Assembly (NCBI GenBank): GCA_016196625.1
Contig: JACPXH010000017.1
Coordinates: forward strand, 1 to 52,776
Direction: 5' to 3'
Source: Candidatus Parcubacteria bacterium
Lineage (GTDB): Bacteria; Patescibacteriota; Minisyncoccia; JACPXH01
Length of the DNA: 52,776 bases
Positions 5,136 through 45,670 of this stretch are shown piece after piece. Numbering within the stretch: the stretch's first letter is position 1; each line of letters opens with the position of its first letter. The notes under the pieces were generated by a model, which saw nothing but the letters and a program-made list of their open reading frames with translations, was not told the origin of the DNA and did no database searches. The position numbers and the translations under genes are program-made.

Positions 5136-5143
5136 AGTTGAGC

Positions 5144-7321
5144 ATGGTGGTTGATGAAAAACGAAAGCCAAAGCGCATTTTAGTAACCGGCGGAGCCGGT
5201 TTTATTGGGTCAAATCTATGCGAATACCTCGTGGGTCGAGGAAATTTTGTGATTTGTCTGGACAACTTTTTTACGGGTTCCCGGCGTAACATTGAACAGT
5301 TGCTCGACTCACCTCGATTCCGCCTTTTCGAATACGATATTGTCAAACCCTTTGACATCTCCGGCCCCATTGACGAGATATACCATCTGGCTTGTCCGGC
5401 AGCCCCGCTCCACTACCAGTTCGATCCGGTCGAAACCATGCGGATCAACGTGGTTGGAACCTTCAACGTGCTCGAACTCGCGCGCGCCAAACGCGCCAAG
5501 GTACTCTTCGCTTCCACCTCCGAAATCTACGGCAATCCCACGGTCCACCCGCAGCCGGAAACGTACGCGGGCAATGTGAACCCCACTTCACGCCGGTCCT
5601 GCTATACCGAGGGCAAGCGCGCGGCTGAAACGCTAGTCATGGATTATCACCGTGAGTATGGCGTGCCTGTGCGCATTGTGCGAATTTTCAACACGTACGG
5701 TCCGCGCATGTCGCTCACCGACGGTCGGGCCGTACCGAATTTCTTTGTACAGTCTCAACGCAACGAGGCGCTGACCGTTTGGGGGGACGGCACGCAGACG
5801 CGCAGTTTCATGTACATTTCGGATTTACTGAAGGGTTTGGTAACACTGATGGAGCAGGAGGAACTGTTGGGGCCGGTCAACATTGGCAACCCCGACGAAT
5901 ATACGATTCTGCAGTTTATTGATGAGATCCGTGCGGCCGTGGGTTCTACCAGCGAAGTGAAATTCGTCCGCCCCTTGCCCGAAGGCGACCCGGAGCGGCG
6001 CAAGCCGGATATCACTTTGGCGAAAGAGAAACTTGGTTGGGAACCGGAGGTCTCGCTCAAAGACGGGCTCGCACGCACCATTCCCTACGTGCGCGAACAC
6101 CTGGGACGTATGCGCCGCGTGCTCATTTTTTCGGTCGCGTACTTTCCCTTTGTGGGCGGGGCAGAGGTGGCGGTTAAAGAAATCACGAGCCGCATCCCGG
6201 ATTGGCACTTTGACTTACTCACTGTTGATCTCGCTGGCAACTTGCCCCGGGTTGAGCAGATGGGTAACGTGACAATTCACCGGCTGCGCATGGGTGGCCT
6301 CGCGCGGCTCTTTGCGGGTTCTCACCGGGGCAAACGCGCGCTCAAATACTTCTATCCCGTCTTCGCGCTTTTCAAAGCGCACCGGCTCCACCGGCACAAT
6401 CCCTACCAGGCGGTTCACGCCATCATGGCGAATTACGCCGGTTTCGCCGCGCTCTTTTTCAAGTGGCTGCACCCGATTATTCCCTTCCTGCTGACCCTGC
6501 AGGAAGGCGATCCCATCGACTACATCAAGCGCCGCGTGCGGCTGTTTGTCGTGACCCCATTGCTGTTTAGACAGATTTTTCTTAAGGCAAGTTACGTGCA
6601 GTCCATCTCCAAGTACCTCGCCAAGTTCGCGCAAGGCATGGGCTATCGCGGTCCGATCGAGGTAATTCCAAACGGCGTTGATGTGGCGCATTTCATGAGG
6701 GAGGTTCAGGCGGCAGATCTTAAGGCGCTCCGTGAGAAACTGGGGCTGAAACCCGAGGATACCGTTGTGATCACCACTTCCCGCCTTGTGCTCAAAAACG
6801 GGGTGGACGACCTCATTAAAGGCGTGGCGCAGGTACGTCGCCCCGTGAGCGCCGAGGCTCGGCAAAGCCGGCCGGTCAAGCTCCTAATTTTGGGAACGGG
6901 ACAGGACGAGCCAATGTTGCGAGCGCTTGCCAAAGACCTGGGAGTGCAGGATCAAGTTTTGTTCTTGGGTCAGATTGTCCACGCAGAGCTGCCGAACTAT
7001 TTAAAAATTTCAGATATCTTCTGTCGTCCGTCGCTGTCTGAGGGGTTGGGCAATTCGTTCCTTGAGGCCATGGCCGCCGGTGTGCCCATTATCGGAACAC
7101 CTGTTGGTGGGATTGTGGATTTCTTGGAGGATCGCACAACCGGGTTATTGTGCGAGGTGCGCAGCCCCGCAAGCATTGCGAAAGCCATCGAGACGTATCT
7201 AGCGAATGACGAGCTGCGCCGCGCGATTATTGAAAAAGGCCGGGCACTGGTCGTGAGCCACTACGACTGGGTCCAGATTGCACAGCGCATGCATACCATC
7301 TACGAACGGCTGCTCGCGTAG
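5144..7321 (+). CDS. Fusion protein: UDP-glucuronate decarboxylase (UXS-type extended SDR) :: GT4 glycosyltransferase
   Basis: N-terminal about 322 aa carry RILVTGGAGFIGSNL, the UXS signature LDNFFTG, and YTEGKRAAE (YxxxK). From the in-frame ATG 6110 (MRRVLIFSVAYFPFVGGAEV) a 403-aa GT4 domain follows, with SEGLGNSFLEAMAAGVPIIGTPVGG. No stop codon lies between the two halves. Confidence 0.85.
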   Translation: MVVDEKRKPKRILVTGGAGFIGSNLCEYLVGRGNFVICLDNFFTGSRRNIEQLLDSPRFRLFEYDIVKPFDISGPIDEIYHLACPAAPLHYQFDPVETMRINVVGTFNVLELARAKRAKVLFASTSEIYGNPTVHPQPETYAGNVNPTSRRSCYTEGKRAAETLVMDYHREYGVPVRIVRIFNTYGPRMSLTDGRAVPNFFVQSQRNEALTVWGDGTQTRSFMYISDLLKGLVTLMEQEELLGPVNIGNPDEYTILQFIDEIRAAVGSTSEVKFVRPLPEGDPERRKPDITLAKEKLGWEPEVSLKDGLARTIPYVREHLGRMRRVLIFSVAYFPFVGGAEVAVKEITSRIPDWHFDLLTVDLAGNLPRVEQMGNVTIHRLRMGGLARLFAGSHRGKRALKYFYPVFALFKAHRLHRHNPYQAVHAIMANYAGFAALFFKWLHPIIPFLLTLQEGDPIDYIKRRVRLFVVTPLLFRQIFLKASYVQSISKYLAKFAQGMGYRGPIEVIPNGVDVAHFMREVQAADLKALREKLGLKPEDTVVITTSRLVLKNGVDDLIKGVAQVRRPVSAEARQSRPVKLLILGTGQDEPMLRALAKDLGVQDQVLFLGQIVHAELPNYLKISDIFCRPSLSEGLGNSFLEAMAAGVPIIGTPVGGIVDFLEDRTTGLLCEVRSPASIAKAIETYLANDELRRAIIEKGRALVVSHYDWVQIAQRMHTIYERLLA

Positions 7322-19602: not shown

Positions 19603-20661
19603 ATGCCGCAGCGAAAATACCAAACCGTACTCATCACCGGCGGGTCAGGATTCATCGGCTCAAACTTTGTCCGATACGCCTACCACGCGCACCCGGATTG
19701 GCGTATCGTCAACCTCGACTTGCTGACCTACGCCGGCAATCCGGAAAACCTGCGAGACATCGAAGCGTTCGAGGATGACAAACCCGCCGCTCAACGCCGG
19801 TATACGTTCGTCAGGGGCGACGTGTGTGGCGTGGCGCTTCTCTATGAACTGTTCGGTCAGCATCACTTCGATCTGGTCGTACACTTTGCGGCTGAATCGC
19901 ACGTTGATCGTGCCATCTTCAGCGACGTGGATTTCGTACGTACGAACATCGAGGGTACACGTGCGCTCATCGAGGCCACTCGCAAGAATGGTGGGACTCG
20001 TTTTGTGTATATCTCAACCGATGAGGTGTATGGTTCAATTCCGGACGGTTACGCTACCGAGGATACTCCATTTCGACCTTCCAACCCCTACGCGGCTTCG
20101 AAAGCCGGAGCAGACTTACTCGTGCAGTCCTATATGAAAACGCATAGCCTGCCGGCTGTAATCGTCCGAGGTTCCAACAACTACGGCCCTTACCAGTACC
20201 CTGAAAAGCTGATTCCCATCGCCATCACCAACCTGATCGAGGACAAGAAAATTCCTGTCCACGGCACGGGCGAACAGAGCCGGAGTTGGTTACACGTGGA
20301 CGATTTTTGTCGCGCGGTTGATATCGCTGTTCACGCGGCACTTGACTATGGCATCTACAATGTGGCCGGCGAGGAACGGACAAATCTTGAAGTGCTCGAA
20401 TTGCTCGCCCGCCACCTTGGCAAGAATTTGCGCGACCACCGCGAGCACATCAATGATCGGCCCGGCGGAGATTTTCGGTATGCGTCTGACGCAAGCCGCA
20501 TCGAACAGGAGTTGGGTTGGTCGCGGCGGTATGCCTTCGAAGAGGGTATCCAACAGGTGGTGCGGTGGTACACGGATAACCAACCGTGGTGGCAGCCCAT
20601 CCGGTTGAAAAAGGGATTTGTTGAGCACTATGAGCGTCAGTCCAACGGCCAGTGGTGTTGA
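19603..20661 (+). CDS. rfbB: dTDP-glucose 4,6-dehydratase
   Basis: 352 aa. VLITGGSGFIGSNFVRY; LTYAGNPENL; YISTDEVYG; YAASKAGADLL (YxxxK). Full-length resemblance to RmlB/RfbB. Confidence 0.9.
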   Translation: MPQRKYQTVLITGGSGFIGSNFVRYAYHAHPDWRIVNLDLLTYAGNPENLRDIEAFEDDKPAAQRRYTFVRGDVCGVALLYELFGQHHFDLVVHFAAESHVDRAIFSDVDFVRTNIEGTRALIEATRKNGGTRFVYISTDEVYGSIPDGYATEDTPFRPSNPYAASKAGADLLVQSYMKTHSLPAVIVRGSNNYGPYQYPEKLIPIAITNLIEDKKIPVHGTGEQSRSWLHVDDFCRAVDIAVHAALDYGIYNVAGEERTNLEVLELLARHLGKNLRDHREHINDRPGGDFRYASDASRIEQELGWSRRYAFEEGIQQVVRWYTDNQPWWQPIRLKKGFVEHYERQSNGQWC

Positions 20662-21910
20662 GGCGGGTGCGTGCGTGGCGCGCACAAACTGTCGAATCTG
20701 CGGCAGCCGTCAATTCGAGCCGTTCCTTGATTTGGGCGAGCAACCGCTCGCGAATGCGCTACTCACCCGCGACGCGCTCGACTCCCCCGAGCCTCGATAC
20801 CCGCTTCAGTCGCAGGTATGCACCGATTGCGGCCTCGTGCAACTCCGGCACGTGGTTGACCCGCGGATTCTGTTTGCCGATTATCCCTACTTTTCGTCCG
20901 GCGTGCCAACAGCGGCGCACTTTGCCGATTACGCCCAAGAGCTGGTGAGCCGTTTTCTTCCTGTCCCGGGTGCGTTCGTCTGCGAGATTGCAAGCAACGA
21001 CGGCCACCTGTTGCGTCTTCTCCGGCAAGCTGGTGCGCGCGTACTCGGCGTGGACCCGGCTCGCAACGTTGCCGCCGTTGCCAACAAACGCGGCGTGCCC
21101 ACCATTGTCGATTTCTTCTCCTCCAAACTCGCCGCCGATATCCGGCGCACCCACGGCCCGGCCCAGCTCGTCATCGCTAACAACGTCGTTGCCCACATTG
21201 ACGATCACCGAGACCTTGTACGGGGCATCGCCAATCTGCTGGCCGATGACGGAGTGTTTGTGATGGAAGCGCCACACCTTTCCGATATGTTCGAGCGGCT
21301 TACGTTTGATACCATCTACCATGAGCATCTCTCATCGCTCGCCGTGCGCCCCCTTACGCGGCTCTTCGGTCAATTCGGGTTCGAGATTTTTGACGTGAAG
21401 CTCCTGCCCGTCCAGGGAGTTTCGTTGCGCGCGTACGTCGCGCGCCGTGGTCGTCGCCGCATGCAGCCGGCGGTGTCCGGATGTCTTGCCCGCGAGGCGG
21501 CACTCGGCCTTGACCGGATGACGTCGTACGCCGCTCTTGCCCGGCGCATTGGAGCGCTCAAGGCCGACGTGGTCTCTACCGTCCGACAGCTCAAGGCCCG
21601 CGGCAAACGGATCGCCGGTTACGGCGCAGGTGCGAAGGGGAATACCATTTTGCTCTATTACGGTCTCGGCCGCGACGAGTTTGATTACGCCACGGACGAG
21701 CAGTCTTCCAAGATTGGTAAATTCATGCCGGGCACGCGGCTGCCCATCGTGGACATCGTTTGGTCGCGTCAACATCCGCCGGATTACTATTTTTTGCTTG
21801 CGTGGAACTATAAAGATGTGATTTTGCGCAAAGAACAGGAGTTCGTGGATCGAGGCGGCAAATTCATCATGCCGATCGGTGATGAACGGATTATTCCTAA
21901 AGAAGTCTAA
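20630..21910 (+). CDS. NDP-hexose C-methyltransferase-like enzyme (TylCIII-type: Zn-ribbon + SAM MTase + C-terminal domain)
   Basis: N-terminal four-Cys pattern CRICGS ... CTDCGLVQL. SAM-binding core VCEIASNDGHLL. Long C-terminal domain. Start is uncertain: ATG 20630 overlaps rfbB by 32 nt, and GTG 20675 lies just after the rfbB stop. Confidence 0.7.
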   Translation: MSVSPTASGVEAGACVARTNCRICGSRQFEPFLDLGEQPLANALLTRDALDSPEPRYPLQSQVCTDCGLVQLRHVVDPRILFADYPYFSSGVPTAAHFADYAQELVSRFLPVPGAFVCEIASNDGHLLRLLRQAGARVLGVDPARNVAAVANKRGVPTIVDFFSSKLAADIRRTHGPAQLVIANNVVAHIDDHRDLVRGIANLLADDGVFVMEAPHLSDMFERLTFDTIYHEHLSSLAVRPLTRLFGQFGFEIFDVKLLPVQGVSLRAYVARRGRRRMQPAVSGCLAREAALGLDRMTSYAALARRIGALKADVVSTVRQLKARGKRIAGYGAGAKGNTILLYYGLGRDEFDYATDEQSSKIGKFMPGTRLPIVDIVWSRQHPPDYYFLLAWNYKDVILRKEQEFVDRGGKFIMPIGDERIIPKEV

Positions 21911-36039: not shown

Positions 36040-37251
36040 TCATTTGTCGCGCAAATAGGCGTCGAATACGGAAATCATGTAATCAAGGTGTGCCTCGGTC
36101 AATCCATGATGGCAGCCGATGAGGAAGGATCGTTCAAGTATCATATCCGCGCCCGTGAGTGGCCCGGCGATTCGTTTGCGAATGCGCCGATACGCGGGGT
36201 GGCGCAGGATGTTGCCCGAGAATAGCAGACGCGTTTGGATGTTGTGTTGTTCAAGATAGGCGAGCAGATGGCGGCGTTCAATGGGTGATGTTTCTCGAAT
36301 GGTGAGCGGGAAGGCGAGCCAGTACGCATGCGAGCCAGGACTCGTTTTAGGCAAAATGAAGTGCTGTTCGTAGCGGCGGAAGAATTCGAGGAGCCGCGCA
36401 AAATTGTGTTCGCGGACCTTGTTAAAACGCGCGAGCTTCTCGAGTTGTACGAGCCCAAAGGCGGCCTGCATCTCCACTCCCTTGAAGTTGTAGCCGATGG
36501 CAACGAACGTGAAGCGACCGTCAAAAGAAACGTTACCTATCCGAAAACCAAAACGCTGTCGAATGTTCCGGTCGTCCTTTTCTGGTAGTGCCCGGCCCCA
36601 GCCCGTGAGTACCCTCGCTTCGTTGAGTTGCGCGGCGTTATCGGTCAGGACCATTCCGCCTCCGCCGCCGCTCGTCATGTGATGTCCGGCGTAGAAGCTC
36701 GTCGTCGTGATGTCTGACCATTGGCCGGTGGGTTTACCTCGGAAGGTGTTGCCGATCGTATCGCAGCTATCTTCGATCAAGATGAGGTGGTGTTTGTCGC
36801 AGATGGCGCGTAGCCGCACCATGTCGTTCAAATTCCCCAAGAGGTGGGAGACCATGATCGCCCGCGTGCGCTTTGAGATTGCGGCCTCGATCTGATCGAG
36901 GTTTGCTTGGTAGGTGCCGACGTGTGAGTCCACAAATACGGGCATGTGGCCGTGTTGGATGATGGGGCTAAGGGTAGTGGGAAATGTGCAGGCTTGCGTG
37001 ATGATCTCGGAGCCCTTTGGGAGATTCGCAATTTCAACCGCAAAGAAATTTGCCGATGAGCCCGAATTTAAAAAGAGCGCGTGGCGTTTGCCGAACCGCG
37101 TAGCTACCTTTTTCTCGAAGGCGGCAGTGTATTCGCCCGGCCCCAGCCATCCGGCTTTGAGGCACTTGACCACCGCCGCTATCTCTTCTCGGCCGTAGAC
37201 GGCCTTCGCATAGAGGATCCGTCCCAAGCCGCGTTTTGATTTGATTTTCAT
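36040..37251 (-). CDS. RfbH/E1 (DdhC)-like PMP-dependent NDP-4-keto-6-deoxyhexose 3-dehydratase, DegT family
   Basis: LNSGSSANFFAV. The active-site region SFYAGHHMTSGGGGG has His where DegT aminotransferases have the Schiff-base Lys, as in E1/ColD. The WGR... region lacks the C-x-C-x7-C cysteines. Start taken at ATG 37251; ORF-track TTG 37266 is the alternative. Confidence 0.75.
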   Translation of the reverse strand: MKIKSKRGLGRILYAKAVYGREEIAAVVKCLKAGWLGPGEYTAAFEKKVATRFGKRHALFLNSGSSANFFAVEIANLPKGSEIITQACTFPTTLSPIIQHGHMPVFVDSHVGTYQANLDQIEAAISKRTRAIMVSHLLGNLNDMVRLRAICDKHHLILIEDSCDTIGNTFRGKPTGQWSDITTTSFYAGHHMTSGGGGGMVLTDNAAQLNEARVLTGWGRALPEKDDRNIRQRFGFRIGNVSFDGRFTFVAIGYNFKGVEMQAAFGLVQLEKLARFNKVREHNFARLLEFFRRYEQHFILPKTSPGSHAYWLAFPLTIRETSPIERRHLLAYLEQHNIQTRLLFSGNILRHPAYRRIRKRIAGPLTGADMILERSFLIGCHHGLTEAHLDYMISVFDAYLRDK

Positions 37252-37343
37252 GTGGAGTCGTGTCAAGATTCCCGTACCTGCAAGTATACCCCGCGAGAAA
37301 GCCTTGGAGTACCCTCGGGGCGTTGTGCGGCGAATCTATCTCA

Positions 37344-38438
37344 ATGACCTATCCAAATCGTAGTATGGGAGTCCTCGATCCCATCGTAGAGGAAGACATC
37401 CGCTGCATTCTCGCCTCATCCGGAGATCTGGTGCGGGAGTTGTCAGGATCCTCAATTCTCATCGCCGGGGCGAACGGTTTTTTGGGCTCCTATCTGGTGG
37501 ATACGATCGTCGCGGCGAACCAGCGTTTGATGCCCTCAACACCGGCAACGGTGATTGCGCTGAGTCGTACGTCGCCAGAAAAGATTACGGGTTTTCGCCA
37601 TCTTTTGCAAGATCCTCACGTAACATTCATCACGGGAGACATCACCCAGCCGGTTGCGTTGCCGTCACGCGTTGATTACGTTGTCCACGCGGCTTCGAAA
37701 GCTTCACCGAAAGCGTGGGCAGCGCATCCGATTGAGACCGCTGACGCGAATACAGTAGGGACGCGGCGGCTCCTCGAGCTGGCGTATGCGAACCGTGCGA
37801 AGGGACTTCTATTCATTAGCTCTGCTCAAGTGTATGGCGATGCGGGAGCAGCGTTCGATCTCATCCCAGAGGACTTTGGCGGTACGGTAAGTCCACTCAA
37901 CCTTCGGGCTGCGTACCATGAGGCGAAGCGCTTCGGAGAGACGCTCTGCTACCTTTTTCATCACGTCCATCACGTACCGGCGAAAATCGCGAGGCCGTTT
38001 TCGGTCTACGGCCCGCGTCTTTCATTGAACGATGGCAAGATCGTACCCGAGTTCATGCGCCGCGGTTTTGCCGGAGAAGATCTTCCGGTGTTTGGGGAGG
38101 GAGGAGCGGTCCATGCGTTTAGCTACGTGACGGATGCGATTGACGGGCTTTTGCGGGTGTTGCTGCATGGAGCGCCGGGCGAGGCGTATAACATTGGCAG
38201 TAACGAAGAGATTACGGTTCGAGACTTGGCACAACTATTCGCAGAGCTCTTTCCGGGAGTCGTCATCAAGAGCGTTCCTGCTGGGCCAGCCCCTCGCGAG
38301 CCGAGATTAGTTCCCGATCTCGGCAAGATCCAGAAACTCGGTTACCACCCCTGTATTTCCTTGCGAGAGGGCTTAACCAGATTCAAAGAGTGGCATCGTT
38401 TATACGGCGGCGAGTTGCTGAAAGGGGACGACACCTAG
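37344..38438 (+). CDS. NAD-dependent epimerase/dehydratase (extended SDR)
   Basis: From ATG 37344: ILIAGANGFLGSYLVDTI (GxxGxxG), VVHAASKASP, YHEAKRFGETL (YxxxK). About 45-aa N-terminal extension before the Rossmann motif. Confidence 0.75.
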   Translation: MTYPNRSMGVLDPIVEEDIRCILASSGDLVRELSGSSILIAGANGFLGSYLVDTIVAANQRLMPSTPATVIALSRTSPEKITGFRHLLQDPHVTFITGDITQPVALPSRVDYVVHAASKASPKAWAAHPIETADANTVGTRRLLELAYANRAKGLLFISSAQVYGDAGAAFDLIPEDFGGTVSPLNLRAAYHEAKRFGETLCYLFHHVHHVPAKIARPFSVYGPRLSLNDGKIVPEFMRRGFAGEDLPVFGEGGAVHAFSYVTDAIDGLLRVLLHGAPGEAYNIGSNEEITVRDLAQLFAELFPGVVIKSVPAGPAPREPRLVPDLGKIQKLGYHPCISLREGLTRFKEWHRLYGGELLKGDDT

Positions 38439-38456
38439 CTTGCATCAATTACTGCC

Positions 38457-39353
38457 ATGCAGAAACAAAAAATACTGATCACCGGAGGGTCGGGGATGCT
38501 TGGTTCTGCATTCACGGAGTTCCTTCGTGGGGAAAACTATAGTGTTAGGCCTCTCGCGCATACCGATCTCGACGTGCGAGACCGGGCGCGGGTGTTCGAG
38601 GAAGCGGCATTCGCGCCGGATGTGGTGATCCATACCGCAGGGATTGTCAACGCTGACTACTGCGAAGAACACAGAGACGAGTGTTTCGCCAGTCACGTCG
38701 GCGGCACCGAAAACATTATTGAACTGTGCCGCAGAACCGGTGCTCAGCTTCTCTACCCCCAAACATTTCTCATTTTTGACGGCACCGAAGTACCCGCCAC
38801 CGAAGAGACTTCTCCTCGTCCGCTTTCAGTGTACGGCGAGGCAAAGTGGCGCGCAGAGCAAATGGTGCGTGAGCGTCTGCCGGAGGCACTTATTGTGCGT
38901 ATGGGGGGGTTCTTCGGCGGCTACGAAAAAGACAAGAATTTCGTAGGCAAGTTTGCGTATCTCCTCAAGAAAAGTGTTGCGCAAGGCCAGAAATCTCTGC
39001 AAGGCATCGAGCGCGTATGGCAGCCGACATTTACGGAAGAACTCGCGCGCAATTGCACGCAGCTTATAGAACAGCACGCCACGGGCGTTTACCATATGGC
39101 AAGTCATGGGTCGGCCTCTTTCTTTGATGTCGCCCGGGCCATGGTTGAAATTTTTGGTCTTGAGAAACGCATCGAAATCGAAAAAGTTCCTTCTCATTAC
39201 TTTGAAGAAAAATGCCGGCGGCCGGAAAACGGCACGATGGAGAACAAATGCCTTCAAGCAGAAGGCCGTGACCAGATGTCCCATTGGCGGCTAGCGCTGG
39301 AGGAGTATCTCCGGCGTCCTTACTTTCAGAATTTGTTTGCCGGACTCGTATGA
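38457..39353 (+). CDS. RmlD-like NDP-4-keto-sugar reductase (dTDP-4-dehydrorhamnose reductase family)
   Basis: 298 aa. KILITGGSGMLGSAF, DVVIHTAG, YGEAKWRAEQMV (YxxxK). Size and layout match RmlD-type reductases. Confidence 0.75.
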   Translation: MQKQKILITGGSGMLGSAFTEFLRGENYSVRPLAHTDLDVRDRARVFEEAAFAPDVVIHTAGIVNADYCEEHRDECFASHVGGTENIIELCRRTGAQLLYPQTFLIFDGTEVPATEETSPRPLSVYGEAKWRAEQMVRERLPEALIVRMGGFFGGYEKDKNFVGKFAYLLKKSVAQGQKSLQGIERVWQPTFTEELARNCTQLIEQHATGVYHMASHGSASFFDVARAMVEIFGLEKRIEIEKVPSHYFEEKCRRPENGTMENKCLQAEGRDQMSHWRLALEEYLRRPYFQNLFAGLV

Positions 39354-40393
39354 CGAAGTATTTATTTTTGGAGCCATTTGAGAAAGAAGGTCTTTCTCTG
39401 AAAAATCGTCTGGTCATGACGGCCATGACCCGGGAGTTTGCCGATGAAAACCATTGCCCCACAGACGAAATGCGCGCGTATTATGAGCGGCGTGCCGCTC
39501 ACGGCATAGGCCTCATTCTTTCCGAGGGCACCATTGTTCATCCGAGCGGGGACGGGTATCCTACGGTGCCGTATATGTATACGGACGAGCACGTAGCAGA
39601 GTGGAGCAAAGTCGTTGCCGCGGTGCAGGCGCACGGCGCAAAAATGTTCTGCCAGCTCTGGCACTGTGGTCGCATCTCGCACCCGGATTATTTGAATGGT
39701 GCTCTGCCGGTGTCGTCATCAGCAATCGCGCCAGAGGGCAATCATAGCCGGCTGAAAAAACCTTTTGTTACGCCGCGGGCGCTCGAAACGCAAGAAATTC
39801 CGGAGATTGTAGAGATGTTTGTCCGAGCTGCCCAACAGGCGCTGAGCGCCGGATTTGACGGCGTGGAAATACACGCTGGCCACGGGTATCTCATCGATCA
39901 ATTCTTTGACAGCCGCGTCAATCACCGTACCGATCAATATGGCGGCTCGGTTGAAAATCGGTGCCGGTTTGCGCTCATGATACTAAAAAGAGTTCTCGAA
40001 GTTGCAGGGCCCACGCGAACAAGCGCGCGCATTTCCCCGTCGCGCGAGATGAATGGCCTCTACGAGTGGCCTGATCTTGAAGCCATGCTGGATTATTTAA
40101 TTCCTGAACTAGATGCGGCGGGTGTGCGGATATTGGACGTGAGCTGTGCTCGGAGCGATTACGCACAGACCTCGGGCAGGATGGTGCGGCTTATCAGGCC
40201 TAGGTGGCCGCACATACTCATGGCCGGCGCAAGTTTGTCTCCCGAAACGGCCGACAAAGAAATCAGGGATGGCGTGATTGATCTCGTTACCTATGGCCGA
40301 TATATTCTGGCCAACCCCGATTTCATCGAGAAAATCACGCGCGGGGAACATTTGATCCCGTACGATAGCGAGATGTTGAAGACGATGTATTAG
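39350..40393 (+). CDS. Old Yellow Enzyme family NAD(P)H:flavin oxidoreductase
   Basis: ATGA overlap with the upstream stop. LKNRLVMTAMTR, QLWHCGR, GFDGVEIHAGHGYLIDQFFDSRVNHRTDQYGGSVENRCRF: canonical OYE/NemA-type blocks. Confidence 0.8.
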   Translation: MTKYLFLEPFEKEGLSLKNRLVMTAMTREFADENHCPTDEMRAYYERRAAHGIGLILSEGTIVHPSGDGYPTVPYMYTDEHVAEWSKVVAAVQAHGAKMFCQLWHCGRISHPDYLNGALPVSSSAIAPEGNHSRLKKPFVTPRALETQEIPEIVEMFVRAAQQALSAGFDGVEIHAGHGYLIDQFFDSRVNHRTDQYGGSVENRCRFALMILKRVLEVAGPTRTSARISPSREMNGLYEWPDLEAMLDYLIPELDAAGVRILDVSCARSDYAQTSGRMVRLIRPRWPHILMAGASLSPETADKEIRDGVIDLVTYGRYILANPDFIEKITRGEHLIPYDSEMLKTMY

Positions 40394-40478: not shown

Positions 40479-42104
40479 CTAGTCAACCGGAGCGAGCATT
40501 GGCTCCGGTAGCAAGTCTGAGTTATACACCACTTGGTCGTAGAGGTGGTGACGTGTGGTGGTGCTCAAGGTACGAAGCGTGAGGTCGTCTTGGGCGAAGA
40601 AGCGCTTCGCGAGCTTCTCGCCGCGGGGGAGCTGTGCAAAGTATGGCCATAGCGCCTCGAAGGTTTCGGCTCGATGGGCGCTCAATTCCCCAAGCGCTGC
40701 CCGCAACGCCGCTTTGCGCGTAGTGCGCTCGACGGTTTCCCCAAGTGCGGCCAGATGTTCGATGGTCATCCGTCCGAGGGCAGCGAAGCTGAAGTCGCCC
40801 GTCCGCAGATACCGCTCCGCCAGCTCATCTCCGCGCGGCACATGGCCAAAGAAGTTGAAGAGCGCCTGGAGCACCACGGTTTGATCGCGGTAGCGCTCGT
40901 TCTCTTCGTGGCTGAATGGTCGGCGCGCAGGGTTTGGCTTGGTGGGGTCGGTTTGGTAGCGGTCGTTCCAGTAGAACGTGAGCACGCTCCGATCAAAGAA
41001 GGTCTCGGAGAGGTCGTCGTTATTGCCTCCGTAGTAGCCCCACCGGACCGCAAGCTCTCCCAGCGTAGTGCCGCGGTAAGGGGCGAAGATGGAACTCCAC
41101 GCCATATCGGGCCTGATCGCGACGTTGAGCCGCAGTGTCGCAAGGTTCAAGTCGAGATCGCTCGTCGGGAGCGCCATGATCTGTTCAGTGCGCAGGCGCA
41201 ACCCCGCCGCCTTAATCTTGGCGCATCCCTCGACGATCTCATCGTTCGTCATGCCGTCGCGGTCCAGGATGTGCTTGCGCACCCACGGGTCGGCCGATTC
41301 GATGGCGGTCGTAAGCCCGCAGCAACCTCCTTCCTTGAACAGCTTGAGCCGGCGCGGGTCGCGCGTGAGCTCGAGTCGGATTTGGGCGTGCCACGGAATT
41401 CGAACCCGATCTCGGTACTGGCGGACGAACTCTTCCAGCCAGGGGATGTTGAAGCCGAACACGTCGTCCTGAAAGAAGATGAGACGGGTCGGCCAGCGCC
41501 GGCGGATTTCTTCGAGCTCGGCGATGACGGCTTCAACCGGTCGGGCAACCAACTTGAAGCCGCCATAGAGCTGTAAGAACTGCACGTTGTAGCAGTACGT
41601 GCAGCCCCATGGGCAACCTAGCGCCGTGATCGAGTTTTTGATGGGGTTGTCTCGGTGCCGCGGGTATTCGTCGTAGAAGGTCGCTCGGTCCGGACAGGGG
41701 AATCCCTCCCGAAGGAGTTTCTCGTCGAAGAATACCCCAGTGGATGCCGTCCCTCCCAAGATGTGCCGGAACCCCGTGAACCCCTCCCCCCGGACTACGT
41801 GCCGGGCGTATTGGGCGGCGTCTTCGGCAAAGTAGGTGGCGTGCGGTCCGCCCATGGCCGTCGTAATACCCATGGCGTTGAGGCGCTTCATCGCTTCGTA
41901 GACGGGTTTGTGCGCGCCGCTATAGACGTTGAAGCCAACCAGGTCCGGCCGGAATTCTTCAACGCGTTCAAACAGCGGCCGGAAGTCAAAATCTCTGACC
42001 AGCACGATGCGGGTCTGATGGCCGAGCTTTTTGGCGAGCCCGGCCAGGTAGATGAGTCCTAGGGGTTCGATGATCGAGTAGGCGGCCGCGAGCAATATGC
42101 GCAT
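40479..42104 (-). CDS. B12-binding-domain radical SAM enzyme (class B rSAM)
   Basis: 541 aa. N-terminal Rossmann-like B12-binding-type domain (MRILLAAAYSIIEPLGLIYLAG...DLVGFNVYSG). Radical SAM motif CPWGCTYC (CxxxCxxC). Long C-terminal extension. Confidence 0.8.
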   Translation of the reverse strand: MRILLAAAYSIIEPLGLIYLAGLAKKLGHQTRIVLVRDFDFRPLFERVEEFRPDLVGFNVYSGAHKPVYEAMKRLNAMGITTAMGGPHATYFAEDAAQYARHVVRGEGFTGFRHILGGTASTGVFFDEKLLREGFPCPDRATFYDEYPRHRDNPIKNSITALGCPWGCTYCYNVQFLQLYGGFKLVARPVEAVIAELEEIRRRWPTRLIFFQDDVFGFNIPWLEEFVRQYRDRVRIPWHAQIRLELTRDPRRLKLFKEGGCCGLTTAIESADPWVRKHILDRDGMTNDEIVEGCAKIKAAGLRLRTEQIMALPTSDLDLNLATLRLNVAIRPDMAWSSIFAPYRGTTLGELAVRWGYYGGNNDDLSETFFDRSVLTFYWNDRYQTDPTKPNPARRPFSHEENERYRDQTVVLQALFNFFGHVPRGDELAERYLRTGDFSFAALGRMTIEHLAALGETVERTTRKAALRAALGELSAHRAETFEALWPYFAQLPRGEKLAKRFFAQDDLTLRTLSTTTRHHLYDQVVYNSDLLPEPMLAPVD

Positions 42105-42433
42105 GGCTCCTCCCCCAGAGGCGTTGTGTCAAGGTACCGTTGCTCTCACCATGTCAAGAGCACTCTAATTATAGCGTGTCCAGAGCATCTCTGTTTTCAC
42201 TCTGTGGATAACTTTTGATTCCTGGTGCTACTTTCTTTCGCTGGGCATCTCTACTTTTGTAGGGGCAGATCGCAAACTCTGCCGGGGTTTACCCCGTTGG
42301 AGATTTATATAGTACTGCAATGGGTTACGAACACATCTCGCGTCTTACGTTCATGCCACCAAGATCGTCTCGTTTCCCATCTCTAACGGGGTTTACAGGA
42401 ACTGCGCGGTCTTTTATGATAGGAGGCAATACG

Positions 42434-43801
42434 ATGCGTATTCTCGTGCTCAACCCCGCTATTTACGCGGGCAAAACAAATATCATGACGGTACGCGACC
42501 GTCAGCCGTTGGACATGGCGTATATTGCCGCACTCCTTCGTGCGGATCACGAGGTGCGATTGTTGGACGCGAACATTTTTGGGTACGACGTGGACCGCAC
42601 CCTTGAGGAGATCGAGGCGTTTCGCCCGGATGCTTTCGTGCTTACCTCGACGCCCGTCAACCGATGGGAATGCCCGAATTCGCACATTGATTCGGTGTAT
42701 GAATTGATCAACCGGGCCAGAATTGAAAACACGATTTTGACCGGCTCGCACGGGTCGGTGACGCCCGAGTGGATGCTGCGAAAATGCAACGTGAAGTATG
42801 TGGTTCGTGGGGAACCGGAGATGATCGTGAAAAACCTTGTGGAGACGATTGCCGCGGGCGGCGACCCCAAGACCGTCAAGGGGATTTCGTTTCGAGAAGG
42901 TGAAGGGTTCCGCCACACCGAAGACGCCCCACGCGTGGAAAATCTCGACGCGATGCCAATGCCGGCATACGATCTTTTGCCGATGGAGCGGTACCGCTAC
43001 TCGTTCAGCGATCTCCCGCAACCCTTTTCAATTATGTTGACCAGCCGCGGCTGCCCCTACCACTGCACGTTCTGCCTCAAGGTCATGTCGAAAGACAAAT
43101 TTATTTGGCGTTCGACCAAATCCGTCATTGATGAGATTCAGTATCTGCAGCAGAATTTCGGCGTGCGATCGGTTTACTTTCAAGACTGGGAGTTTGTGAT
43201 CAATAAACCCCGCGTCCACGAACTGTGCGATGCTCTCATTCGTGAGGGGATCAAGGTCCGGTGGGGGTGCAACGTGCGCGCAAACGATTTTTTCTTCAAA
43301 GACCTGATCAAGAAAATGGCGGATGCCGGCTGCGTGCGGGTGAATATCGGGTTTGAGTCCGGCAGCCAGAAGGTTTTGAACTCGATAAAGAAAGCCATTC
43401 GGATTCAGGACTTGGAAACCGCGATCGAATTTACGCGCGCGCTCGGCATTAAACTCGGCATGTACGCCCTAATCAACGCGCCCGGGGAAACGAAAGAGAC
43501 GATTCGCGAGACTATGGCGTTTTTGGCCAAGCACCACATTGACGCGATGAATTTTAACCTTACAATTCCATATCTCGGCACCGAGATGCATGAACGCTTG
43601 AAACAACTCAAGCCGCAGGCCGAAGTCAATTGGGATAATGTGGAAGATTATGCGGGGTTGGTGGACACCGAGCTTTCGCCCGTGGCCGCGCGCTTCTGGC
43701 AGCGGCATGCCAAGTTTCAGATTCGGTTCGGTAAGCTCTATCCGTTGAACCCGGCCTTTTGGCAGCACGCCGTAAAAATGGTGGCGAAACGTTTAGCGTA
43801 G
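42434..43801 (+). CDS. B12-binding-domain radical SAM enzyme (class B rSAM)
   Basis: 455 aa from ATG 42434, with AGGAGG 7 nt upstream. MRILVLNPAIYAG...AFVLTSTP N-terminal domain. CPYHCTFC (CxxxCxxC). GCVRVNIGFESGSQKVL. Confidence 0.8.
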   Translation: MRILVLNPAIYAGKTNIMTVRDRQPLDMAYIAALLRADHEVRLLDANIFGYDVDRTLEEIEAFRPDAFVLTSTPVNRWECPNSHIDSVYELINRARIENTILTGSHGSVTPEWMLRKCNVKYVVRGEPEMIVKNLVETIAAGGDPKTVKGISFREGEGFRHTEDAPRVENLDAMPMPAYDLLPMERYRYSFSDLPQPFSIMLTSRGCPYHCTFCLKVMSKDKFIWRSTKSVIDEIQYLQQNFGVRSVYFQDWEFVINKPRVHELCDALIREGIKVRWGCNVRANDFFFKDLIKKMADAGCVRVNIGFESGSQKVLNSIKKAIRIQDLETAIEFTRALGIKLGMYALINAPGETKETIRETMAFLAKHHIDAMNFNLTIPYLGTEMHERLKQLKPQAEVNWDNVEDYAGLVDTELSPVAARFWQRHAKFQIRFGKLYPLNPAFWQHAVKMVAKRLA

Positions 43802-43885
43802 GATGTGATGCGTTTTCGAATGGAGAGGGCTCGTCGATAGTGTTAGGGTATTATCTTGCTGCCTACTCAACTTCCGCCGTGTCTT

Positions 43886-44779
43886 ATGAGAAAGCAATCG
43901 GTTAGCCGCCGCGGCCCTGCGGCGAATATCGTCGCGCTCGGCGCGGATCATAATGGCGTCAAGCTTAAAACCGAAATCAAAGCGCTCTTAGCGTCACTCG
44001 GTTATCAATGTGTGGACGCGGGATCTTATAGTGAAACCGAGAAGGTTGACTATGCTGATTACGCTCGTACGGTTGGCCAGCTCGTGAATTCTGGTGAGGC
44101 GTCCCGCGGAGTGCTGGTGTGCGGAACCGGAGTGGGCATGAGCATGGTAGCCAACCGGTTCCCGAACGTGCGCGTAGCGCTCGCGCGCAGCCCCGAGGTG
44201 GCACGCAAGGGTCGAGAGCACAACGATGCGAATGTGCTGTGCCTCGGTGCGTGGGTGAATCCCGTGCGGACCAACCTTGCCATCGTGCGGGCGTGGTTTG
44301 GCGAACGCTTCGGCGAAGACCGTCACATCCGGCGCGTGGCCAAGTTCACCGAACCGCGACGCGAGAAAGTGGTGTTCACAAACGGGATTTTCGATCTTTT
44401 GCACTCGGGGCACGTTCACCTCCTGAAGTGCGCGAAAGCTCTGGGCGGCAAACTTATCGTGGGGATCAACTCGGATCGCTCCACGCGCATCCTTAAGGGC
44501 CCAACGCGGCCGGTCTGTGGCGAACAGGATCGCAAGAAGCTCATCGAGTCGCTTGGCTTCGTAGATCAAGCGATCATATTCGATGACACCGCCACCCTTC
44601 CGCTCATCAAACAAATCAAGCCGGATGTGGTGGTCAAAGGCGGGGAGTGGACCGCGGCGGAGGTGCGCCGACGCGATAAGATTCCACCCGAGATCGAGGT
44701 GAGGGTCTTCCCGCTGCTCGCTGGTTACTCAACGACGAACATGGTAAAGACCATCACCGGTCGAAACCGCGCCGCATGA
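43886..44779 (+). CDS. Fusion protein: RpiB/LacAB-type sugar-phosphate isomerase :: HldC/RfaE-domain-II-like nucleotidyltransferase
   Basis: N-terminal half: IVALGADHNGVKLK, VLVCGTGVGMSMVANRF (RpiB Cys motif). C-terminal half: VVFTNGIFDLLHSGHVHLL (HxGH), GINSDRSTRILKGPTRPV, PDVVVKGGEW, as in heptose-1-phosphate adenylyltransferases. TTG 43856 is an alternative start. Confidence 0.75.
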   Translation: MRKQSVSRRGPAANIVALGADHNGVKLKTEIKALLASLGYQCVDAGSYSETEKVDYADYARTVGQLVNSGEASRGVLVCGTGVGMSMVANRFPNVRVALARSPEVARKGREHNDANVLCLGAWVNPVRTNLAIVRAWFGERFGEDRHIRRVAKFTEPRREKVVFTNGIFDLLHSGHVHLLKCAKALGGKLIVGINSDRSTRILKGPTRPVCGEQDRKKLIESLGFVDQAIIFDDTATLPLIKQIKPDVVVKGGEWTAAEVRRRDKIPPEIEVRVFPLLAGYSTTNMVKTITGRNRAA

Positions 44780-45018
44780 ATATCCTGCGCCGGGTCATCG
44801 CCGCGTTCCCGCTTTGAAGCACTGTGCCCAAACGCTGATTGATTTTTACCCAACGCACCAGAAGGCCATCGTCTCCTGCTGGTGGATGAATGGTTGGTGT
44901 GTAGGCCTTCGGTGCGGGGTTCCGCCCCGCCACCGAAATACGAGGTGCCGCCGACTCCCGTCGGCGGGGCTCCACCAAATCGTAGCAAGTACACTTCATT
45001 TTATTTGCAGAAGAGCAA

Positions 45019-45042
45019 CCGCCGCGGCAAACGCCGCGGCGG
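45019..45042 (-). terminator. GC-rich hairpin downstream of the minus-strand Nudix-like gene
   Basis: CCGCCGCGGC-AAAC-GCCGCGGCGG: 10-bp perfect stem, 20 nt beyond stop 45062. On the minus strand it is followed by TTGCTCTTCTGC. Confidence 0.45.
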
Positions 45043-45061
45043 TGGTGCGCCGAGCCGGGTA

Positions 45062-45670
45062 TTAGTCGAAACATCCCACCGGCTCATCTGAAAGAAGGTA
45101 TCGGAGGAACCACTGTTGGAGGCCCCACGCGGCCATGGTCTCGCACGGCATCTTACTGAACTCGCGCACCGGCACGATCAAACGTTTGATTCGTTCTCCC
45201 TCCTTGCGCAGGCCGAACTCCTCTTGACCCTCGGCCACCGCATCCGGTCGTACCTCTGCGTAAGCAAGGTATGTGCGTTCGGTGAGCAGGCCCGGAGATG
45301 CAGCGAGGTGGCGTCGGTCGTTGAGTATCGCAACAAGATCATTATCGCCGATGTGGACCCCGACTTCCTCCCACGCTCCCTCCACAACGTGCTGCCTAAT
45401 GGTGAGGTGCGGTTTATCGAGCCGCTCACCCGGCACGTCGAGCACTGCACCGTCGGGGTGCTCCGGGCTTATCATGGGCGGACGCGGCTGGGTGATAAGG
45501 ACGACGCTCCCGTCGTATCGGTCGAATCGGGTTCTGTGGGGGTAAGGAACTCGCGCATGGGCGGACACACAAATGAGGAACGCAACTGTTGCCTGATTTG
45601 GCGTTCGCACGATCTCGTACCCTCGTTCGTCGCGTTCAACCCTGACATAACCATCATAGACGATTCCCAT
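45062..45670 (-). CDS. Nudix-fold hydrolase-like protein (ADP-ribose/NDP-sugar pyrophosphatase-like, degenerate Nudix box)
   Basis: 202 aa. RBS AAGGAGG 5 nt upstream of the ATG. LDVPGERLDKPHLTIRQHVVEGAWEEVGV resembles G-x5-E-x7-RE-x2-EE-x-G, but the Arg-Glu pair is not conserved. Assignment is tentative. Confidence 0.45.
   Translation of the reverse strand: MGIVYDGYVRVERDERGYEIVRTPNQATVAFLICVSAHARVPYPHRTRFDRYDGSVVLITQPRPPMISPEHPDGAVLDVPGERLDKPHLTIRQHVVEGAWEEVGVHIGDNDLVAILNDRRHLAASPGLLTERTYLAYAEVRPDAVAEGQEEFGLRKEGERIKRLIVPVREFSKMPCETMAAWGLQQWFLRYLLSDEPVGCFD

Follow-up and report, generated by a model that had tools for sequence, protein, structure and literature searches.

A cysteine-less relative of the sugar 3-dehydratase E1 and an RmlD-linked Old Yellow Enzyme encoded in a Parcubacteria glycan locus

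Genes at the locus

The sequence studied here is a contig of 52,776 nucleotides from a “Candidatus Parcubacteria bacterium” assembly (GCA_016196625.1, JACPXH010000017.1; the whole contig is referred to below as the window), in which a gene for a predicted nucleoside diphosphate (NDP)-sugar 3-dehydratase of the E1/RfbH type lies next to a divergently transcribed operon encoding an Old Yellow Enzyme (OYE). Deoxygenation of sugars at C3 has two textbook solutions, namely, the E1/E3 pair with its Fe-S clusters and ColD with glutamate. The dehydratase gene (36040..37251, minus strand) encodes 403 amino acids (aa), a predicted pyridoxamine 5′-phosphate (PMP)-dependent NDP-4-keto-6-deoxyhexose 3-dehydratase from a Cys-less sister clade of E1. 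About 92 bp of intergenic DNA (37252..37343), a putative shared control region, separates it from three plus-strand genes, which encode a UXS-like extended short-chain dehydrogenase/reductase (SDR) (37344..38438; 364 aa from ATG; PF01370, 144 bits), a predicted RmlD-like NAD(P)H ketoreductase (38457..39353; 298 aa; PF04321, 187 bits), and the OYE, a predicted flavin mononucleotide (FMN)-dependent ene-reductase (39350..40393; 347 aa; PF00724, 248.7 bits).

The SDR frame is open from a GTG at 37260 (open reading frame [ORF] 37260..38438), and its first ATG, at 37344, is the likely start. The RmlD-like protein scores 176.6 bits against TIGR01214, below the cut-off of 224.05, and keeps both the GxxGxxG motif (GGSGMLG, residue 10) and the YxxxK motif (YGEAK, residue 126) when aligned with 3sc6. 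Direct reading of the sequence finds ATGA at 39350-39353, where the OYE start overlaps the RmlD-like stop. The OYE matches PF00724 over its full length (profile positions 4 to 338 of 342) and SYE4 (4b5n) with an E value of 1.5e-77; its H-x-x-H-x-Y motif reads HAGHGY (residues 175 to 180, 39872-39889) and aligns with HGANGY of SYE4, and the FMN motifs are kept. Profile matches and direct reading thus agree with a preliminary description of the locus, which had reported a divergent operon of these three genes with an ATGA overlap.

A Cys-less sister lineage of E1

The dehydratase matches PF01041 (DegT_DnrJ_EryC1) at 280 bits. Its nearest solved structure is Yersinia E1 (3bcx; E 6e-92, 311 bits, residues 17 to 399), and ColD is matched at E 5.8e-46 and 160 bits. 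Against the NCBIfam RfbH model NF011936 it scores 397 bits, under the cut-off of 423; the Fe-S E1 of one of the loci discussed below, L017, scores 659. The preliminary description had seen an E1-type protein with His in place of the pyridoxal 5′-phosphate (PLP)-binding lysine, on the strength of the blocks SFYAGHHMT (residues 185 to 193; 36673-36699, minus strand) and NSGSSAN (residues 62 to 68), and this was borne out by alignment with 3bcx and 3bb8. The first His of SFYAGHHMT, His190 (codon 36682..36684, minus strand), is not off the catalytic position. It aligns with E1 His220, where the H220K entry 3bb8 has Lys, and is the predicted catalytic His at the PLP-lysine position.

E1 binds its [2Fe-2S] cluster through the motif C-x57-C-x-C-x7-C, i.e., Cys193, Cys251, Cys253, and Cys261. 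The segment of E1 with C-x-C-x7-C, WGRDCYCAPGCDNTCKKRF, is replaced in the alignment by the loop WGRALPEKDDRNIRQRF (residues 218 to 234; 36550..36600, minus strand), with Leu222, Glu224, and Ile230 at the positions of Cys251, Cys253, and Cys261, respectively, confirming the loss of ligands reported earlier. Only the equivalent of Cys193 survives, as Cys163 in the block IEDSCD (36760..36777, minus strand), which also contains Asp164, the equivalent of E1 Asp194. Since ColD, a cluster-free enzyme, has the same Cys (LEDNCE), Cys163 is no indicator of a cluster in the dehydratase. The protein has five Cys residues in total (30, 88, 151, 163, and 380) and no C-x-C. The position of E1 Phe345 is occupied by Leu. 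Asp194, Tyr217, and Phe345, a set reportedly put forward by Smith et al. in 2008, are residues that we take to be an E1 signature and that we used as a lead rather than as a test.

A maximum-likelihood tree was built from 74 sequences comprising Yersinia E1, ColD, the structure 9wvy, the E1-type genes carried by 25 further Patescibacteria genomes, and those from the OYE loci described below. The window protein falls in a Cys-less clade of 43 rows (SH-like approximate likelihood ratio test [SH-aLRT] support, 99), the sister of an Fe-S clade of 26 rows that includes Yersinia E1 (SH-aLRT, 97). ColD and 9wvy lie outside both E1-type clades, each on a long branch, and Lys-type aminotransferases are also placed outside. 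Each of the three ligand columns is Cys throughout the Fe-S clade (26/26 rows) and never in the Cys-less clade (0/43), and His190, Asp164, and Tyr187 are invariant in every sequence of both clades. The best 120 homologues in a collection of 5.8 billion proteins (50 to 63% identity), mostly from Parcubacteria-type metagenome-assembled genomes (MAGs), are all without the Cys ligands. Because of the sister-clade topology and the ligand columns, the window dehydratase, as judged from its sequence, is neither E1 proper nor ColD but a third lineage, related to E1; a grouping with ColD, which had been raised as a possible outcome of such a tree, was not found. Fe-S-free 3-dehydratases as such are already known; what is new is the form represented by the E1-sister Cys-less clade.

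Two further observations concern the relatives of this enzyme. A subclade of Fe-S E1 proteins from four Patescibacteria genomes (L045, L046, L047, and L053 from G104, G183, G228, and G315, respectively) has C-x-C-x10-C (WGRACWCRGDEKGRYGACNARF) rather than C-x-C-x7-C. PDB entry 9wvy, a recent deposit titled “putative NDP-4-keto-6-deoxyglucose-3-dehydratase,” has the block SFYAGHHLT and a cluster loop without Cys; with its own long branch it is, by these sequence features, a further Fe-S-free lineage besides ColD. A literature search on 9wvy found no paper.

An OYE subfamily linked to RmlD-like genes and E1-type loci

The nearest homologues of the window OYE (63 to 72% identity), from Ryanbacteria and Parcubacteria MAGs, have an RmlD-like gene directly upstream in 4/4 loci. 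Scans of genome and metagenome collections yielded 74 nonredundant OYE loci, and in a tree of the OYEs a clade of 42 (SH-aLRT, 99) consists of 35 RmlD-linked members, 5 without an upstream flank, and 2 others, one of them the archaeal L018; none of the 20 OYEs that fall outside the clade is linked to an RmlD-like gene (Fisher P = 2e-13). The OYE is thus directly 3′ of an RmlD-like gene in 35 of the 37 informative clade loci. The clade extends over Patescibacteria, Bacteroidota, Ignavibacteriota, Verrucomicrobiota, Pseudomonadota, and one archaeon; 26 positions, among them S231, R232, M234, Y238, and W240, are conserved specifically within it. A literature search found nothing relevant connecting OYEs or ene-reductases with rfbH, ddhC, RmlD, or deoxysugar pathways.

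Co-occurrence with E1-type genes was counted within the fetched flanks of OYE loci of at least 12 kb. An E1-type gene was present in 11/17 clade loci and in 0/17 control OYE loci, so the link between dehydratase and OYE suspected from the window alone is real and conserved and not a chance neighborhood. In L013, the E1-type gene is 13 kb from the cassette, and in L008 a DegT gene is found at the edge where the locus is cut. The E1 partners in OYE clade loci comprise nine Fe-S, seven Cys-less, and two incomplete proteins. In four loci (L014, L017, L070, and L077), an FNR-like gene (227 to 237 aa) comes right after the Fe-S E1 gene. The L017 operon begins with genes for a glucose-1-phosphate cytidylyltransferase (TIGR02623, 417 bits), cytidine diphosphate (CDP)-glucose 4,6-dehydratase (TIGR02622, 502 bits), and RfbH (659 bits) and continues with genes for the FNR-like, SDR, RmlD-like, and OYE proteins. 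The same order, with a Cys-less dehydratase, is found in the metagenomic loci L081, L083, and L102. L117 comes from a cultured bacterium, Acidovorax sacchari (AP035784.1, about 5.076 to 5.097 Mb), in which an operon for a cytidylyltransferase, a 4,6-dehydratase, an Fe-S E1, and RmlC-like, SDR, RmlD-like, and OYE proteins is part of a flagellin glycosylation island near fliC, fliD, and fliS. In the archaeal MAG L018, the OYE gene overlaps the end of an Fe-S E1 gene, and the RmlD-like gene is absent.

Overall, the RmlD-like/OYE pair is a conserved cassette beside both kinds of E1-type pathway in several bacterial phyla. This OYE also accompanies Fe-S E1 enzymes with an adjacent FNR-like reductase, and for that reason the comparative data mark it as a true pathway component and not as a replacement for E3 confined to Cys-less enzymes.

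Other features of the cassette loci were recorded as well. Genes for thiamine pyrophosphate (TPP)-dependent branching enzymes occur in L014, L070, L075, L089, and L090. L014, L089, and L118 encode a YerE-like TPP enzyme, HMGL-like or HpcH aldolases, a DHQ-synthase-like protein, and short SDRs, a combination pointing to 3,6-dideoxy sugars of the higher-carbon or branched kind. The L117 island also encodes a Rieske oxygenase, a second DegT protein, a GT41-TPR protein, acyl chain proteins (KAS III, acyl carrier protein, and SDR), and two flagellins from adjacent genes; a literature search on Acidovorax flagellin glycans and bacterial trideoxyhexoses returned no matchable structure. In L016 (7007-8980; MAG labeled Akkermansia muciniphila), the frame of the Fe-S E1 gene is 657 aa long; it is extended at the N terminus, and ~100 aa are inserted between the blocks IEDNCD and SFYPPHH.

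Reductase genes in Patescibacteria

The window makes up the entire contig C2 of an 818-kb, 94%-complete assembly, and a search of that whole assembly with PF00175 (FNR/E3-type reductases) gave no match, in line with the absence of E3 noted in the preliminary description. A sample of 401 Patescibacteria genomes was scanned for E1-type and OYE genes. E1-type genes are present in 26 of them, of which 8 (the window genome included) carry the Cys-less type, 16 the Fe-S type, and 2 another kind; 4 of the 16 Fe-S carriers show the C-x-C-x10-C variant. The OYE scan of the 401 genomes found the window genome only, plus one unrelated long FadH-like match. OYE genes are therefore absent genome-wide from all seven other Cys-less carriers, and five of these seven also lack FNR-like genes. 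FNR-like genes occur in 12/16 Fe-S carriers versus 2/8 Cys-less carriers (Fisher P = 0.03); they are directly beside the E1 gene in three Fe-S carriers and never adjacent in Cys-less carriers. Six contigs with three close homologues of the window dehydratase (L001 to L006) were examined for a neighboring OYE gene, and none was found; they carry genes for SDRs and for ALS-like TPP enzymes and/or split transketolases, i.e., yersiniose-like branching genes.

Because OYE is absent from 7/7 of the other carriers and FNR-like genes are absent from 5/7, the Cys-less clade most likely functions without a reductase, in the manner of ColD. In ColD, whose mechanism is the only one of this reductase-free type to have been described, the 3,4-ene adduct is hydrolyzed and glutamate then restores PMP (PMC8987622). 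The same 2022 review of nucleotide sugar dehydratases gives E1, ColD, and SpnQ as the characterized 3-dehydratases (PMC8987622).

Genomic setting and probable substrate

A glycan biosynthesis locus spans the entire window, with genes for many GT4 and GT2 glycosyltransferases, a Wzy-like ligase, a flippase, RmlB, a sugar C-methyltransferase, and two B12-radical S-adenosylmethionine (rSAM) enzymes. Between 30 and 40 kb, the G+C content is down to 0.47-0.55 from ~0.58-0.60, and a single bin at 40 to 42 kb reads 0.60. The RmlB gene (deoxythymidine diphosphate [dTDP]-glucose 4,6-dehydratase; 19603..20661, plus strand) scores 401 bits against TIGR01181, above the cut-off of 365, and its product is likely to supply the 4-keto-6-deoxyhexose substrate of the dehydratase. 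The sole NTP_transferase gene of the genome is on contig C14 (C14:6485-7186), and a search of the genome found no orthologue of a CDP-type cytidylyltransferase or 4,6-dehydratase. Given RmlB in the window, the single NTP-transferase, and the absence of the CDP-type enzymes, the substrate is probably dTDP-4-keto-6-deoxyglucose. A second gene, more RmlD-like than the one in the operon, is found on contig C16.

The nearest solved relative of the operon SDR is the uridine diphosphate (UDP)-glucuronate decarboxylase 2b69 (E 2.5e-47). A search of the genome for UDP-glucose dehydrogenase (PF03721) found none, and on that ground we set aside the possibility that the dehydratase receives a UDP-4-keto-pentose from the UXS-like SDR. 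For the same reason, the UXS-type fold, as recognized in the sequence, probably serves some other chemistry. At 5138-7321, a GT4 transferase carries a fused SDR domain that is paralogous to the operon SDR (32% identity).

The window was compared at 40479-45670 with L001, from a related Parcubacteria MAG (GCA_016186535.1, JACPLK010000016.1). A 493-aa B12-rSAM protein shares 91.5% aa identity and a 202-aa Nudix-like protein 85%, whereas the dehydratases share only 62%, and in L001 rmlA/B/C/D-like genes occupy the place of the rSAM541, OYE, RmlD-like, and SDR genes of the window. The hypervariable glycan locus of the window may thus have been reshuffled through cassette exchange, and adjacency to the OYE gene may be a recent swap. 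In addition, the RmlB gene is overlapped by a downstream gene for a 430-aa TylC3-like sugar C-methyltransferase (PF08421 and PF08484; window 19603-21910 for the pair), and together with the two B12-rSAM genes (40479-43801) this may indicate a locus making C-methylated deoxysugars.

Proposed pathway and alternatives

The reading to which we give slightly better than even chances is that the Cys-less dehydratase works without a reductase, as ColD does, and that the RmlD-like/OYE cassette adds a step after 3-deoxygenation. The dehydratase would form a PMP ketimine at C4 of its substrate, here probably dTDP-4-keto-6-deoxyglucose from the action of RmlA (contig C14) and RmlB (19603..20661); His190 would take the C4′ proton, and the 3-OH would leave. 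The resulting 3,4-ene adduct would be hydrolyzed as in ColD to PLP and an enamine that gives an NDP-4-keto-3,6-dideoxyhexose, and PMP would be regenerated by transamination from an amino acid, probably glutamate. Deprotonation of this 3-deoxy-4-keto sugar at C3 with β-elimination of the 2-OH would yield a hex-2-en-4-ulose, which would be the sole enone within reach since no C=C remains after either E1 or ColD chemistry. With NAD(P)H, the OYE would saturate this C=C, after which the 4-keto group would be reduced by the RmlD-like enzyme; coupling of an ene-reductase to a ketoreductase suggests the order enone, ketone, alcohol. In a 4,6-dehydratase, NADH from the first step reduces the enone. Here, unlike in a 4,6-dehydratase that makes its own NADH, the substrate is already a ketone, and an external ene-reductase would therefore be needed. 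A sugar of the 2,3,6-trideoxy type would result, or a precursor for C4 branching by TPP enzymes.

A wider proposal is held more tentatively, and we think it possible but with odds clearly below even: the RmlD-like/OYE pair would be an undescribed, horizontally mobile deoxygenation module that acts after E1-type enzymes of either kind, Fe-S or Cys-less, and opens a second, 2,3-dehydratase-independent route to 2,3,6-trideoxyhexoses or C4-branched sugars in surface and flagellin glycans.

The preliminary description had the OYE replace both the cluster and E3, such that NAD(P)H reduction of the 3,4-ene intermediate, and not glutamate, would complete C3 deoxygenation. The divergent adjacency in the window, the lack of E3 in the genome, and the tie of this OYE subfamily to E1-type loci are consistent with such a role, as are the seven clade loci that pair a Cys-less dehydratase with OYE and have an FNR-like gene in 0/7 cases. 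We consider it unlikely, however, since the other Cys-less carriers (7/7) and L001 to L006 manage without OYE and the same OYE is found beside Fe-S E1, with FNR-like reductases adjacent in four loci. The intermediate would, moreover, be covalently bound to PMP inside the dehydratase and out of reach of the buried FMN of a second protein, and by ColD chemistry the C=C is gone after hydrolysis (PMC8987622). Of the first suggestion, a predicted E1-type, His-bearing 3-dehydratase with neither an Fe-S site nor an E3 stands. The part given to the OYE as a stand-in does not, because the Cys-less state is clade-wide and mostly found without OYE, Fe-S E1 enzymes are accompanied by it too, and its constant partner is the RmlD-like protein.

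Fe-S partners might instead draw on the OYE as a general electron donor to E1-type enzymes, which with its FMN would play the part of E3 or of the flavodoxin reductases that serve SpnQ; the RmlD-like protein would then be a plain 4-ketoreductase. OYE-like FMN domains of FadH-type enzymes do exchange electrons with Fe-S clusters, six of the nine typed Fe-S loci have no FNR-like gene in their flanks, and on the L018 contig the OYE gene overlaps the end of the Fe-S E1 gene without an FNR-like gene being present. Yet an FNR-like gene adjoins E1 besides the OYE in four loci, Cys-less partners offer no cluster as an acceptor, the OYE retains the full H-x-x-H-x-Y substrate-binding triad, and it is the ketoreductase gene, not E1, to which it is coupled in 35/37 informative loci, all of which makes this role quite improbable. 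The score just under the RfbH equivalog cut-off and the aminotransferase activity that SpnQ shows without a reductase (PMC8987622) could be taken to mean that the E1-like protein is a His-variant sugar aminotransferase or an inactive relic rather than a dehydratase. This is very improbable in view of the invariance of His190, Asp164, and Tyr187 in both clades, the large clade with intact full-length ORFs for the sampled genes, and the position of the Lys-type aminotransferases outside it in the tree.

The cassette might also serve a different sugar, or a nonsugar substituent of the same glycan, and be linked to E1-type genes only by location, via hypervariable glycan islands. The resemblance of the window to a cassette swap relative to L001, its UXS-like SDR, the 6 to 13 kb between dehydratase and cassette in Patescibacteria loci, and the large cassette loci with no E1 in their flanks (6/17) would fit such a linkage. 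It is nonetheless improbable, given the tight operons of cytidylyltransferase, 4,6-dehydratase, E1, SDR, RmlD-like, and OYE genes in unrelated phyla (L017, L081, L083, L102, and L117) and the E1 count of 0/17 in control OYE loci. Furthermore, E1-type genes are present in five of seven cassette genomes, and in a sixth by tblastn (L016), against a background of 26/401.

Several points also weigh against the reductase-free dehydratase with a downstream cassette that we favor. E1 was not seen within the flanks of six of the 17 large OYE clade loci, and the nearest relatives of the window dehydratase carry no OYE, so that the adjacency in the window is possibly a recent cassette swap. L018, a 9-kb contig without RmlD-like or FNR-like genes, is also compatible with an electron donor role. 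Two of the eight Cys-less genomes do encode FNR-like genes, though not adjacent ones, and ColD-type regeneration of the cofactor would seem to apply by elimination and not on the evidence of particular residues. The extra SDR varies by locus, the UXS-like SDR of the window not being orthologous to those of other loci, and for elimination of the 2-OH there are candidates only, namely, the extra SDR, RmlC-like cupins, and the dehydratase itself.

Relation to known enzymes

Among characterized enzymes, E1 (AscC/DdhC/RfbH of Yersinia and Salmonella; CDP-6-deoxy-L-threo-D-glycero-4-hexulose 3-dehydrase) is like the dehydratase in its fold, in the His at the lysine position, in the SGSSAN and WGR...RF blocks, and in the equivalents of Asp194 and Tyr217. 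Unlike E1, the dehydratase lacks three ligands, has Leu at the position of Phe345, has no E3 in its genome, and likely acts on a dTDP rather than a CDP sugar. ColD (guanosine diphosphate [GDP]-4-keto-6-deoxy-D-mannose 3-dehydratase, 2gms) is the mechanistic model, as a His-type enzyme with neither Fe-S cluster nor reductase (PMC8987622), although the two proteins are only distantly related and GDP-mannose pathway genes are absent from the window. The SpnQ-type dTDP-4-keto-2,6-dideoxyglucose 3-dehydrases are similar in having no dedicated E3 in their cluster, in using dTDP sugars, and in belonging to a 2,3,6-trideoxy route (PMC8987622), but they keep the Fe-S motif and borrow cellular ferredoxin or flavodoxin reductases. 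In the SpnQ route, furthermore, 2-deoxygenation precedes 3-deoxygenation and depends on a Nudix-type 2,3-dehydratase and a 3-ketoreductase, none of which is among the genes annotated in the cassette loci.

The window OYE shares with classical OYEs (SYE4 4b5n, NemA, PETN reductase, and OPR3) a full-length FMN TIM barrel, the H-x-x-H-x-Y motif, and the FMN motifs; it is set apart by its own clade (SH-aLRT, 99) and by translational coupling to an RmlD-like gene inside nucleotide sugar operons. The RmlD-like protein has the RmlD_sub_bind fold, the GxxGxxG motif, and the Thr/Tyr/Lys catalytic pattern of RmlD (dTDP-4-dehydrorhamnose reductase) but falls under the rmlD equivalog cut-off and is paired with OYE.

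Implications

A large cluster-free clade whose closer relative is E1, not ColD, makes it possible to test how evolution passed between the two mechanisms of C3 deoxygenation. The clade is common in the ultra-small Patescibacteria, and most of the sampled carriers encode no FNR-like reductase. OYEs are heavily used in biocatalysis; to our knowledge, their natural substrates are mostly unknown. The genomic context reported here predicts a substrate for one subfamily, a nucleotide sugar enone, and the cassette in the cultured bacterium Acidovorax sacchari makes this prediction practical to test. If it is true, a classical OYE would gain a dedicated physiological substrate, in a route found in several bacterial phyla and perhaps in archaea, and unrecognized trideoxy or branched sugars would be expected in bacterial surface and flagellar glycans.

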